In this document: positions 49,696-52,441 of the stretch, one piece after another
Position numbering within the stretch: the stretch's first letter is position 1
How the letters are laid out: each line of letters starts with the position of its first letter
NCBI GenBank assembly: GCA_964465205.1
Contig: CAYXJO010000001.1
Location: 5,099 to 69,098 of the forward strand
Reading direction: 5' to 3'
DNA from: an uncultured Gammaproteobacteria bacterium
GTDB lineage: Bacteria > Patescibacteriota > Patescibacteriia > Magasanikbacterales > GWA2-37-8
DNA: 64,000 nucleotides
Translations under genes and position numbers: made by a program
Notes under the pieces: model-generated
Told to the model about the DNA's origin: nothing
The model's input: only the letters and a program-made list of their open reading frames with translations
Database searches by the model: none

Positions 49696-49742
49696 GCCAA
49701 TCTCCTTCAGTCAGTCAAAGCGCTTGCGCGCGTAGGTGGTTA

Positions 49743-50654
49743 TTATTCGTTTCCATTTCCGCCGAGCAGGATCGCGCCCGGGTACTGCCACGCGTACGTG
49801 GTCAGTCCGGACGAATAGAATATCAACGTCCGAATTTCTTCAGCCGCCGTCGGCACAGTGAGGCAGTTCGTCACGCAAACGTTCTGCCCGCCGATGTCGA
49901 GTACGGTGGCGCCATGCGCCAAATACATAACCGGCGTACCGGCCGCCATCAGCGCGTTGGTGATCGTGTCGCTTTGTGCCTTGGTGAGCCCGTGTTCCAT
50001 CACGTACCGCGACGCGGAGTCGCTGGCGGTTTCGCCATCCGGTTTGTTGATCGGACGAACCGTCAGTTGCTCCACGCGATGTTTGCGGCACCAGTTCACG
50101 ACGTTCATGACTTTCTCCGGAGTATCGATGTACCCTTGGAGCATCATGACGCACAGCCGGACAGTGAAGCCCAGTTTGTGCAGGTAGGCGATCGTGGTAG
50201 CCAGGTCGGGGTAATCCTTGCGGTAGACCTGGCTATTGTAAGCGTTTTCGTAGTGGACCGTGGACAATGCGATGGTGTTGAGTCCCATGGTGTGCCAGCG
50301 CTTGAGCATGGCTTCGGAAAGTCGGCCTTTGCGCTGTTTCTTGTCGCCGCTAGCCAGCCGGCCGATTTCGAGCCCGTTGGTTTGGAGCTCGACGAACGGA
50401 AAACTGTAGGGCTTGAGCAGGCGTAGGTATTGGGTGATTTCACTCGGATACAACAGCGGTTCGCCTTTGCCCGTGATCAACACCGTGGTGGTGCCGCCGA
50501 TTTGGGCGAGCCGGGCCGCCTTGTGAAAGTTGGTTTCGTTGATTTTGCATGGTTTGCATACCTCGCCAAATCCCGTCATCTGCGAAATGCAGAACGGGCA
50601 GCGAGCGTTGCAAGCCTTGCCGCCGGCGACGATCGAGAATGTGGTGACCTTCAT
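49743..50654 (-). CDS. Radical SAM domain protein (function unknown)
   Basis: CNARCPFC (CxxxCxxC) near the N-terminus, and the GKGEPLL SAM-binding motif. Start MKVTTF is preceded by RBS AAAGGAAG. Confidence 0.7.
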   Translation of the reverse strand: MKVTTFSIVAGGKACNARCPFCISQMTGFGEVCKPCKINETNFHKAARLAQIGGTTTVLITGKGEPLLYPSEITQYLRLLKPYSFPFVELQTNGLEIGRLASGDKKQRKGRLSEAMLKRWHTMGLNTIALSTVHYENAYNSQVYRKDYPDLATTIAYLHKLGFTVRLCVMMLQGYIDTPEKVMNVVNWCRKHRVEQLTVRPINKPDGETASDSASRYVMEHGLTKAQSDTITNALMAAGTPVMYLAHGATVLDIGGQNVCVTNCLTVPTAAEEIRTLIFYSSGLTTYAWQYPGAILLGGNGNE

Positions 50655-50821
50655 GTTCTTCCTTTCGTGGTTCGAGCGTTTAGTTTTCTGTTTCAATTGT
50701 CAATTTGCTAACCCACAAACAAGTTGTGGGTTTTCTTTTAACCACAATTTTTATTTGAAAATTTTTATGGGCAAAAGAAATGTGCGGGGGCACGAGCGCC
50801 CCCGCGTTAGAGGAAAAGAGG

Positions 50822-52441
50822 TTACCGGATCGTCTCAATCGGCGCTTCATCGGACCAGAGCTGGTGAATCGTCTGGTACAGAGACTCCGACACGGCCACC
50901 TTGTACGGCGTGGGGTTCACGCGGCGCAAGTGATCGGGTCGCATCATCGCGAGGCCTGCCTTTACGCGATCACGCGATTGGTGCAGCGACGGCAGCTTTA
51001 TTTTCAATTTGCCGTCCACGATCCAGTCCACATGGAACGGCACCACTCCGGCCGGAATCACGCGGACGCGCTGTGCTTCGTTGAACGGGTGCCGGCATAA
51101 TATAGGCTGGCCAACCTGTGGCGCCGGTTCATCCGCCATCATAATGATGTCGGTGATCGGCTGACGCTCGGCGTTGTACAGACGGTAGACCAGTTTTCTA
51201 TCCGGAATGGTCATCTTGCCCGGGTCCTGCGAAAGCTTGATGCATGGCCGGCCGTTGATCTCGACCAGCTTGTACACGCCTCCGAGTGCAGGTTGGGATT
51301 GGCAGGTGACCGCATGCGTGCCGATACCCAGAGTGTTGATTTCATGTCCCTGAGCGATGATGGCTGCCAGTGTTTCTTCGTTGATGTCATTGCTGGCGAC
51401 GATGTTCATCGCTTTGGCGAATTCGAGCATGGCGTCTTGGGTGCGTCCCACGGTCGCCAGCACCTTTTCGTTCGTGAAACAGTTGACAAACATCTTCCTG
51501 GCCTCTTTGGATAAGTAGGCCAGATCGCCAGAATCAAGGCGTCCGCCGATCGGTTTGTGGCCGGTCTCGATAAGCGCCAACGCCACGCAAATGGCATTGG
51601 GAACGCCAGATTTGAGCGTGTCGTAGGTGTCGAGCAGGGCCAGGAAACCGTCCGGGAAGGCGTTGCCGTAAGCGATGAAAGCCGCCAGTTCGCCGTCGTT
51701 GGTGTCGGTAAATCCGAGCAGTTCGCGGTACTTGAGGGCCAGTCGACCAAGCAGAGTTTTTGCCTGCTCGGCCAGGTCTTCGTGTGAGAACGACGACACG
51801 AACGCGTGTGCGTGCGTGCCGCGTACCGGAATGCCGAACAGTTTGCCGGCCAGCGGAATGCTGGTGGCGTCGAATCCTCCGAGGTAGGTGTAGCGCGCCG
51901 CGCTGATGCCACCATCCGGACCCTGGGCGCGTCGCAGGCCAAACTCGAGCAGACCGATTTTGGGTCCAGCGAGCAGACGAAAGCGCGCGGCCTGGGTGGT
52001 AACGAGGGTGGGGTAGTTGGTGAGGTTTAGAATAGCTGTTTCCAGTATTTGGACCACACCCAGCGGCCCGGCGATCGTGTAGAGTGGTTCGCGCGGGAAC
52101 ACCACGGAGCCTTCGAGCGGTGCACTCAAGGTAACGCCGCTCGCGTCAAGACTGCCCAACCACTTCCAGAACTCCGGTTCACAGCCAGGCATGTCTGCCT
52201 TCAGAAACTTGATGTCCTCGGCGGTGAAACCGAAGTTGGTCACGAATCGCACCACTTCTTCCAGGCCGGCGAAAATAGCGAATTCGCCGCCGAACGGGGC
52301 CTTGCGGAAGAACATGTCGAACACGGCCCAGTCATTGTGTTTCCCAGCTTTCCAGTAAGCATACAACATGGTGAGCTGGTATTTGTCCGTGAGCATTGCA
52401 GTGACTAGGGGATTAGTCGGTTTCGGGGTTTTGATGTGCAT
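50822..52441 (-). CDS. pncB: Nicotinate phosphoribosyltransferase (long, eukaryote-like NAPRT form)
   Basis: N-terminal LTDKYQLTMLYAYW (NAPRT family LTDLYQxTM motif). Phosphoribosyl-binding region GTHAHAFV. 539 aa. Confidence 0.75.
   Translation of the reverse strand: MHIKTPKPTNPLVTAMLTDKYQLTMLYAYWKAGKHNDWAVFDMFFRKAPFGGEFAIFAGLEEVVRFVTNFGFTAEDIKFLKADMPGCEPEFWKWLGSLDASGVTLSAPLEGSVVFPREPLYTIAGPLGVVQILETAILNLTNYPTLVTTQAARFRLLAGPKIGLLEFGLRRAQGPDGGISAARYTYLGGFDATSIPLAGKLFGIPVRGTHAHAFVSSFSHEDLAEQAKTLLGRLALKYRELLGFTDTNDGELAAFIAYGNAFPDGFLALLDTYDTLKSGVPNAICVALALIETGHKPIGGRLDSGDLAYLSKEARKMFVNCFTNEKVLATVGRTQDAMLEFAKAMNIVASNDINEETLAAIIAQGHEINTLGIGTHAVTCQSQPALGGVYKLVEINGRPCIKLSQDPGKMTIPDRKLVYRLYNAERQPITDIIMMADEPAPQVGQPILCRHPFNEAQRVRVIPAGVVPFHVDWIVDGKLKIKLPSLHQSRDRVKAGLAMMRPDHLRRVNPTPYKVAVSESLYQTIHQLWSDEAPIETIR

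Follow-up and report, generated by a model that had tools for sequence, protein, structure and literature searches.

A radical SAM enzyme family found in the company of nicotinate-branch NAD genes in bacteria, archaea and phage-like contigs

The window analysed here, a 64,000-nucleotide stretch of contig CAYXJO010000001.1, encodes a radical S-adenosylmethionine (SAM) enzyme, abbreviated rSAM below, in the midst of genes for the synthesis of nicotinamide adenine dinucleotide (NAD). The enzyme belongs to a distinct family of its own, and the only genomic company which recurs around that family consists of NAPRT, PncA, NadE, NadD/NADK, NadR/PnuC, and NrtR. This NAD context is conserved and is not a local chance. 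The family very probably belongs to NAD metabolism, and it may well be a dedicated small-molecule enzyme of the nicotinate (Preiss-Handler) branch, acting at the node of nicotinate and nicotinate mononucleotide (NaMN), with a substrate class that is suggested by its context. Each specific chemistry that can be proposed for it is given low confidence. The gene and the motifs of its product are as follows.

49743–50654, minus strand: coding sequence of the radical SAM enzyme, partner-less (Cys264) type, 303 residues plus stop codon, matching PF04055
50589–50612, minus strand: CX3CX2C ligands of the [4Fe-4S] cluster, C15-N-A-R-C19-P-F-C22 (CNARCPFC, residues 15–22), read from the sequence
50457–50471, minus strand: GGE-type SAM-binding motif, G62-K-G-E-P66 (GKGEPLL, residues 62–68), read from the sequence
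49863–49877, minus strand: codons of C260-V-T-N-C264, identified by conservation analysis

The ATG at position 50654 is the start codon. The homologues share the same Met, all beginning at MKVTTFS, and a longer TTG-initiated form of 317 residues also exists for this reading frame. The sole Pfam match of the protein is the generic one to PF04055 (Radical_SAM; 38.8 bits, E value 1.4e-9, cut-off 29.5). Reading frame, motifs, and Pfam match together show that the 303-residue radical SAM protein with CNARCPFC and GKGEPLL, which an earlier sequence-only reading of this DNA had described, is real. None of the 447 aligned sequences covering this site lacks C15, C19 or C22, and G64 and E65 are invariant in an alignment of 458 sequences, as are K63, R166, R275, and W289. 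Arg166 aligns with K163 of MoaA, which is reportedly a ligand of the GTP phosphate. The AlphaFold2 model of the protein is a partial TIM barrel (predicted local distance difference test score, pLDDT, 93.4), so that both motifs and fold are established. From membership in the superfamily, the window protein is predicted to cleave SAM to a 5’-deoxyadenosyl radical. An auxiliary Fe-S cluster formed by C168, C189, C260, and C264 is plausible among the close homologues and fails in the 458-sequence alignment, where these positions hold Cys in 33%, 42%, 94%, and 74% of the sequences, respectively. Since C260 and C264 are the only extra Cys residues that stay conserved, a single [4Fe-4S] cluster is indicated for the family, and the lack of a second-cluster motif noticed in the earlier reading holds family-wide. 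A further CKPC pair (C33 and C36; 50546–50557, minus strand) lies just past the cluster motif of the window protein, is not found in homologues, and is probably lineage-specific.

Sequence searches returned 1156 homologues of the window protein from a 90%-clustered collection and 260 representatives at an E value of 1e-30 or less from a 50%-clustered library. The nearest homologues with a source name come mostly from Candidatus Uhrbacteria. Sample SRR11845628 contains an identical contig of 1.3 kb. A genome scan yielded 80 loci, all in metagenome-assembled genomes, from Uhrbacteria, Collierbacteria, Saccharibacteria, and other groups of the candidate phyla radiation (CPR), as well as from Nanoarchaeota, Woesearchaeota, Aenigmatarchaeota, Obscuribacterales, Polyangiaceae, Planctomycetota, Acidobacteriota, and others. 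No member was found in collections of deposited phages and plasmids. The protein fails to join any named radical SAM family, the named NCBIfam models scoring 16–34 bits against cut-offs of 131–490. The MoaA models TIGR02666 and NF001199 give 34.3 bits (cut-off 284) and 24 bits (cut-off 231), the Tes model gives 30 bits (cut-off 450), the viperin model NF038283 gives 19.9 bits over the N-terminal 85 residues only (cut-off 180), and the NrdG model TIGR02495 gives 19.8 bits (cut-off 131). Archaeal MoaA, TrsS, the tungsten-cofactor maturase, ScmF, and QueE are rejected likewise as far under cut-off; for QueE there is only a marginal match to phrog_2076 (E value 6.6e-4, residues 15–94) and no NCBIfam match. 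The profile search thus agrees with the earlier statement that the enzyme is not MoaA, QueE or an activase.

Searches of the PDB by sequence gave E values of 0.001 or above. The closest folds are those of MoaA and viperin, which stand on top, and BlsE and AbmM also rank, all at 13–17% identity. SPASM/Twitch enzymes occur among the fold neighbours, yet the family conserves fewer than three extra Cys residues. It differs from MoaA (15% identity) in lacking the conserved C-terminal three-Cys auxiliary cluster, which binds GTP in MoaA, and in having no moa neighbours. It differs from viperin and pVip (13% identity) in its surroundings, which are those of NAD synthesis; none of the neighbours examined is a recognised defence gene. 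To our knowledge, viperin has no counterpart of the Cys260/Cys264 pair.

The genomic neighbourhood was evaluated with NAD-gene family profiles built for this analysis and applied to 82 related cellular loci from CPR, DPANN archaea, Obscuribacterales, Polyangiaceae, and others. At least one NAD gene lies within 3 kb of rSAM in 50 of them. Within 10 kb the most frequent genes are NADK (27 loci), NrtR (26), PncA (26), NadR-like (21), NAPRT (20), NadE (20), and NMNAT (18), followed by NadA (9), NadB (2), and NadC (2). The density of NAD genes falls more than 20-fold with distance, from 4.0 per 10 kb at 0–1 kb from rSAM to 0–0.18 at 7–10 kb. NAPRT lies within 200 bp on the same strand in nine cellular loci, and the order NAPRT-rSAM-NadE of the window is repeated in L002, with intergenic distances of 0–127 nt in the relatives. 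The majority of the loci contain PncA but not NadA and are purely salvage operons. The following gene orders, taken from precomputed annotations, illustrate the NAD operons that include rSAM.

L002: NrtR, PnuC, NadR-like, ADP-ribosyl-glycohydrolase (ARH), NADK, NAPRT, rSAM, NadE
L084 (Nanoarchaeota): NAPRT, 279-residue protein, NadE, NadA, rSAM, pyridoxal phosphate (PLP) enzyme, NadD, then further on PnuC and NadR-like; rSAM occupies 10001–10876 and the PLP enzyme 10873–11919
L085 (DPANN-like archaeon): NAPRT, rSAM, PncA, NadE, Nudix, PnuC, NadR-like, ARH, NrtR
L088 (Parcubacteria group): NADK and NrtR divergent from rSAM-NadA-NadD
L089 (unclassified metagenome contig): NAPRT, 126-residue protein, PncA, NadE, rSAM, Nudix, NadD, then further on NrtR

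The gene therefore co-localises with NAD genes and with NrtR across distant genomes. The earlier reading had called the NAD context of a radical SAM enzyme unexpected, and the neighbourhood statistics over bacteria, archaea, and phage-like contigs give that remark substance. The contrary case, a housekeeping family with unrelated neighbours in other genomes, was checked and failed clearly because the homologues in all three settings retain their NAD neighbours. With respect to known systems, rSAM shares operons and a regulator with the Preiss-Handler pathway and the NrtR regulon (PncA, PncB, NadD, NadE). NadA was also observed close to rSAM with neither NadB nor NadC within 10 kb (L029, L048/L084, L069, L088, and L044/L052/L054), and NAPRT is likewise near in L048/L084, L088, and L044/L052/L054. 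In many loci the rSAM gene is found together with an NMNAT-NADK fusion or with a neighbouring NADK-like gene.

A scan of IMG/VR gave 68 loci, 57 of them with a family-level match, many on contigs of 100–460 kb. Across diverse viral loci only four neighbour families recur, namely NAPRT (13), NadE (9), NMNAT (6), and PncA (4). Any NAD gene is found at 16 viral loci, and NAPRT is present in 15 of these. The cassettes are compact and follow the deamidated route.

L105 and L108–110: rSAM-NAPRT-NMNAT-NadE
L106: NAPRT-NadE-rSAM-PncA
L117: NAPRT-PncA-rSAM
L132 and L141: rSAM beside NAPRT alone

Cassettes of the same kind are carried by L121 and L091, the latter with a phosphoribosyl pyrophosphate (PRPP) synthetase, and the homologue P0101 is encoded on a contig whose reading frames are short and run on one strand, with NadE, PRPP synthetase, and NAPRT nearby. 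Among the other viral neighbours there are PHROG matches to an RNA ligase, a phosphoesterase, and a Ro-like RNA-binding protein. Of the 57 viral loci, 52 have Cys at residue 264, and a PLP partner occurs in none. The viral origin of these contigs is that of the IMG/VR label together with a few PHROG matches, and some contigs which bear NrtR may be mis-binned CPR or DPANN DNA. Two pathways by which phages reconstitute NAD+, NARP1 and NARP2, are known. The phage-like contigs with rSAM likewise carry compact NAD-rebuilding cassettes, but NARP1 and NARP2 use Adps/Namat or NadV/NMNAT, whereas the rSAM cassettes use NAPRT, NadD, NadE, and PncA. They may represent a third kind of phage NAD-rebuilding module.

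In 32 of the 82 loci a gene for a HisC/CobD-like PLP enzyme is adjacent to rSAM on the same strand, and in the natural fusion P0239 (666 residues) a radical SAM domain with Ser at position 264 is joined to such a PLP domain. The best profile matches of this partner are HisC and CobD, which makes it a divergent class I/II, amino-acid-type fold-I PLP enzyme; all of its PLP-binding residues are invariant, and its model has a pLDDT of 95.3. Residue 264 is Cys in 50 of 51 unpartnered loci and in none of the 32 partnered ones, where it is Ala, Ser or Thr (Fisher p = 3e-22). The lone unpartnered exception is L067, where the contig measures 5 kb and ends shortly past the rSAM gene. At 62 positions the two sub-types are both at least 80% conserved, always with the same residue, and exactly one position is clade-specific between them, residue 264. 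The partner state changes at least seven times on a neighbour-joining tree and therefore does not reflect one ancient split. No PLP partner gene is encoded in the 64-kb window, and residue 264 of the window protein is Cys, which places it in the partner-less sub-type. The mutual exclusivity of Cys264 and the partner is observed directly; that the two are alternative ways to complete the same step is what we infer from it.

Obscuribacterales carry both sub-types as paralogues, L021 with L083 (OZ245871.1) and L019 with L078 (JBIPOV01), the Cys264 form adjoining NADK and NadR-like genes. Pairs of radical SAM enzyme and PLP enzyme are known from DesI/DesII and BlsE/BlsH, and both functions meet in the PLP-containing lysine 2,3-aminomutase. 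In the present family the partner is instead divergent and HisC/CobD-like, no antibiotic cluster is present, and in two thirds of the family the partner, which is absent from the window, is replaced by one Cys. A partner enzyme swapped for a single side chain would be a rare case, and the exclusivity offers a testable handle on mechanism.

What the enzyme makes can be narrowed by these partners and by the fold. One proposal, which we consider rather unlikely as it stands, is an oxygen-free de novo supply of the pyridine ring, in which an amino-acid precursor would be converted to nicotinate or to an iminoaspartate/quinolinate precursor and NAPRT would capture the product. The PLP partner would join this step where present, in parallel to thiamin synthesis, where the radical SAM enzyme ThiH takes the place of the flavin oxidase ThiO. 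The position of NAPRT fits such a supply, as it is the tightest partner in the nine cellular loci with a same-strand gene within 200 bp and in 15 of the 16 NAD-bearing viral loci, including L132 and L141, where it is the only one. So do the amino-acid type of the fold-I partner, the presence of NadA and NAPRT beside rSAM in L048/L084, L088, and L044/L052/L054, where NadB and NadC are absent from the surrounding 10 kb (and of NadA alike in L029 and L069), and the hosts, which are small-genome or anaerobic lineages. However, L065 encodes NadC-NadA-NadB together with the partner and rSAM, so the enzyme is not a simple substitute for NadB/NadC. Moreover, pure salvage operons make up most of the loci, the PLP partner is missing in 60% of them, the nearest folds are those of nucleotide-ribose enzymes, and the synthesis of a pyridine by one enzyme would be unprecedented chemistry. 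A plain replacement of NadB as the sole role was rejected on the grounds of L065 and of NadA being near in only 9 of 82 loci.

The folds point in a second direction, to a radical enzyme of nucleotide sugars resembling viperin, MoaA, BlsE or DesII, which would abstract a ribose hydrogen from NaMN, nicotinate adenine dinucleotide (NaAD) or NAD. Its product would be a deoxy, didehydro, cyclo or amino NAD-derived nucleotide, serving as cofactor or signal, and the PLP partner would transaminate a keto-sugar intermediate. The top folds are exactly the nucleoside triphosphate-ribose enzymes MoaA and viperin, with BlsE and AbmM also ranking, and the basic residues are conserved, including R166 at the position of MoaA K163. 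The best matches of the partner, HisC and CobD, both act on phosphorylated substrates, and pairs of radical SAM enzyme and aminotransferase have precedent in deoxy and amino sugar nucleotides (DesI/DesII, BlsE/BlsH). Nevertheless, the similarity is confined to the shared radical SAM core at 13–17% identity, and there is no known need for such an NAD derivative, minimal genomes and phage cassettes being unlikely places for a side product. Furthermore, sugar-nucleotide aminotransferases are normally of the DegT type, and the partner is HisC/CobD-like. We regard this proposal as improbable.

The possibility that rSAM is a maturase or activase of an NAD-pathway protein (NAPRT, NadE or NadA), or of a glycyl-radical partner, appears hardly credible. 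It had been suggested in the earlier reading, which allowed for modification of a partner protein, and the gene does adjoin NAPRT and NadE. But no glycyl-radical enzyme was found in the window or in the loci examined, there is no RRE, SPASM/Twitch domain or auxiliary cluster, the NrdG model reaches 19.8 bits against 131, and a PLP partner is ill-suited to protein modification. The neighbour also varies by locus between NAPRT, NadE, PncA, NADK, and NadA, so there is no constant protein target, and the suggestion is left unsupported.

We find a small-molecule role at the nicotinate/NaMN node the likeliest, without a commitment to one product. A small anionic substrate at this node is suggested by the invariant K63, R166, R275, and W289, by the alignment of R166 with MoaA K163, by fold neighbours that attack nucleotide riboses, and by NAPRT as the tightest partner, sometimes the only one in a phage-like cassette. 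A pyridine-related small molecule is a plausible substrate, and rSAM would act either ahead of NAPRT, by making or remodelling its substrate, or after it, by processing its product. In the mechanism that we envisage, the reduced [4Fe-4S] cluster would cleave SAM to the 5’-deoxyadenosyl radical, which would take a hydrogen from a substrate that is anionic through a carboxyl or phosphate group and is bound by K63, R166, R275, and W289. The near-invariant Cys260 may then give back a hydrogen atom or an electron, and Cys264, which is present in the window protein, may complete the turnover. In the lineages with Ala or Ser at residue 264, the adjacent or fused HisC/CobD-like PLP enzyme would carry out the finishing step.

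Several points weigh against this assignment. The substrate is deduced from context and from fold neighbours of 13–17% identity, with no characterised homologue, and the canonical Preiss-Handler pathway is already complete in rSAM operons, no step being visibly missing. No NAD gene lies within 10 kb in 14 of 82 cellular loci and in 41 of 57 viral loci, and C260 is found in only 39 of the 57 viral sequences. The close homologue L090 is situated between greA and unrelated genes, and the neighbours of rSAM in L087 are also unrelated to NAD. The partnered paralogue of Obscuribacterales lies outside an NAD context; its surroundings include a ClpB-like ATPase as well as a ThiF-like protein and are uninformative. 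The exclusivity of Cys264 and the partner could mark a structural contact and not catalysis. Lastly, the hairpin and U-tract in the gap ahead of the window gene could be a true terminator, with a promoter of unrecognised type behind it.

Part of this evidence (L087, L090, the 41 viral loci, and the hairpin with its U-tract) would suit a housekeeping or unrelated radical SAM enzyme that hitch-hikes in NAD islands and that, in the window, forms an independent transcription unit with nadE. We judge this explanation very unlikely, since NAD neighbours are retained in different domains of life and in phage-like cassettes, their density drops steeply with distance, NrtR is nearby in 26 loci, no named family fits, and the supposed promoter has no -10 box. 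A foreign origin of the gene was likewise discarded, as its GC content is in line with that of its neighbours.

The biosynthesis and salvage of NAD are considered to be completely mapped, and we know of no radical SAM enzyme that has been placed there. Full-text literature searches turned up no description of NAD operons or NrtR regulons that contain a radical SAM gene. The paper on the jumbo phages PhiRP12 and PhiRP31 reports a radical SAM gene of an unrelated kind and, far from it in the genome, a NAPRT gene. Tentatively, and with somewhat less than even confidence, we propose that the family performs the first radical-SAM-dependent step of NAD(P) metabolism, either an oxygen-independent synthesis of the substrate of NAPRT or a nucleotide transformation at the nicotinate level. 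This step would be shared among CPR, DPANN, other phyla, and huge phages, and would exist in two designs, one with Cys260 and Cys264 and one with Cys260 and the PLP enzyme. As rSAM is kept in the reduced genomes of CPR and DPANN and in phage-like NAD cassettes, it is unlikely to be dispensable. Once known, its reaction could turn out to supply the pyridine ring to anaerobes and symbionts in a new way, to yield a novel nucleotide derived from NAD, or to add an element to the response of phages to NAD-depleting immunity.

In the window the rSAM gene is surrounded by the following features.

56361–56389, minus strand: strong sigma-70-type promoter, TTGACA-17-TATAGT (11/12, with TG extension), from the promoter scan; likely operon start
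55507–56274, minus strand: first operon gene, 255 residues, with only a sub-threshold Elm1-like match and no family assignment
54653–55480, minus strand: nicotinamidase PncA (isochorismatase family), by profile matches
53251–54642, minus strand: fusion of NMNAT (NadD-like) and NAD kinase in a single protein of 463 residues, by profile matches
52459–53118, minus strand: divergent Nudix-like protein with a weak match to TIGR00052 (YffH/AdpP family)
50822–52441, minus strand: NAPRT/PncB, the upstream neighbour (TIGR01513, 478 bits against a cut-off of 297)
47728–49695, minus strand: glutamine-dependent NAD synthetase NadE, the downstream neighbour (NF002730, 745 bits), after a gap of 47 nt and with its own ribosome-binding site
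47682–47697, minus strand: terminator-like hairpin past NadE, from the terminator scan; likely operon end
62261–62947, minus strand: NrtR, regulator of NAD genes (Nudix and NrtR winged-helix domains), by profile matches
41739–42791, plus strand: NadR-like protein (NMNAT and P-loop kinase domains), by profile matches

The flanking NAD genes named in the earlier reading (NAPRT, NadE, NMNAT-NADK, PncA, and the Nudix-like protein) are all borne out. On the minus strand, from 56274 to 47728 and with short gaps, the order is 255-residue protein, PncA, NMNAT-NADK, Nudix-like protein, NAPRT, rSAM, and NadE. Because of the single strand, the short gaps, the promoter at 56389–56361, and the terminator-like site at 47697–47682, this is most likely one NAD operon which runs from the 56.37 kb promoter to the 47697–47682 hairpin and includes rSAM. 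A homologue of the 255-residue first-gene product (39% identity) is encoded in the NAD island of L002 (3181–4026).

The gap of 167 nt between the NAPRT stop and the rSAM start (50655–50821, minus strand) contains these elements.

50784–50805, minus strand: G+C-rich hairpin of 9 pairs (8 G-C), terminator- or attenuator-like, from sequence and terminator scan
50710–50732, no strand assigned: 9-bp inverted repeat without mismatch, AACCCACAA-N5-TTGTGGGTT, just ahead of the TTGACA, read from the sequence
50698–50703, minus strand: TTGACA hexamer, read from the sequence; the promoter scan does not list the site
50658–50666, minus strand: ribosome-binding site GAAAGGAAG, 3 nt ahead of the ATG, read from the sequence

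The hairpin is followed by ACATTTCTTTTG, a U-rich tract to about 50772 (in a longer reading, ACAUUUCUUUUG). It ranks second among the terminator-like sites in 47–57 kb, where 16 such sites compare with 13.1 in shuffles, i.e. no excess. The whole gap folds better than shuffles (z = -3.68) into three hairpins; in one of them the U-tract is paired with an A-tract further downstream, which suggests alternative terminator and antiterminator structures. A search of the gap for a riboswitch or known RNA gave no Rfam match at the gathering threshold or at an E value of 1 or less. The hairpin at 50784–50805 is most likely an internal attenuator at most.

Of the elements reported for this gap by the earlier reading, the GC hairpin with T-run, the TTGACA, and the ribosome-binding site are present, but the promoter is weak, since no acceptable -10 box accompanies them. 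The sequence 17 nt past the TTGACA (50703–50698) is AACGCT, which matches 2/6 of TATAAT, and no acceptable -10 exists at 16–18 nt. By comparison, the clear promoters of this organism have good -10 boxes, e.g. TTGACA-17-TACTAT ahead of nrtR. A promoter of its own for rSAM thus amounts to a -35 box omitted by the promoter scan, and the separable rSAM-nadE unit built on it is not supported, NAPRT, rSAM, and NadE being only 0–127 nt apart in the relatives. The inverted repeat at 50710–50732 is unique within the window and is not found in related loci, which speaks against a shared NrtR operator.

Beside the NAD operon, at 45143–47588 on the plus strand, a Trp-repressor-like protein (105 residues), a PNP/UDP-type nucleoside phosphorylase, a HAD hydrolase, and a divergent phosphoribosyltransferase-like protein are encoded. 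This cluster may serve in the salvage of nucleosides or nicotinamide riboside, or in the removal of 5’-deoxyadenosine. A block of kinase-like protein, PP2C phosphatase, and NrtR adjoins the NAD genes both in the window (59274–62947, minus strand) and in the Parcubacteria locus L088 (615–6026), which hints at phospho-regulation tied to NAD control. Three overlapping reading frames of about 600–620 residues occupy both strands (57445–59295 and 57287–59149, minus strand; 57424–59214, plus strand), and those at 57445–59295 and 57424–59214 have no Pfam match. The window is cellular, a phage being ruled out by GyrA, FtsH, and ThrRS. Five scattered tRNA genes (Arg-TCG, Lys-CTT, Arg-CCG, Met, and Glu-TTC; 12082–12338, 15091–15163, 36193–36267, and 40660–40732) form a set that fits a small cellular genome.

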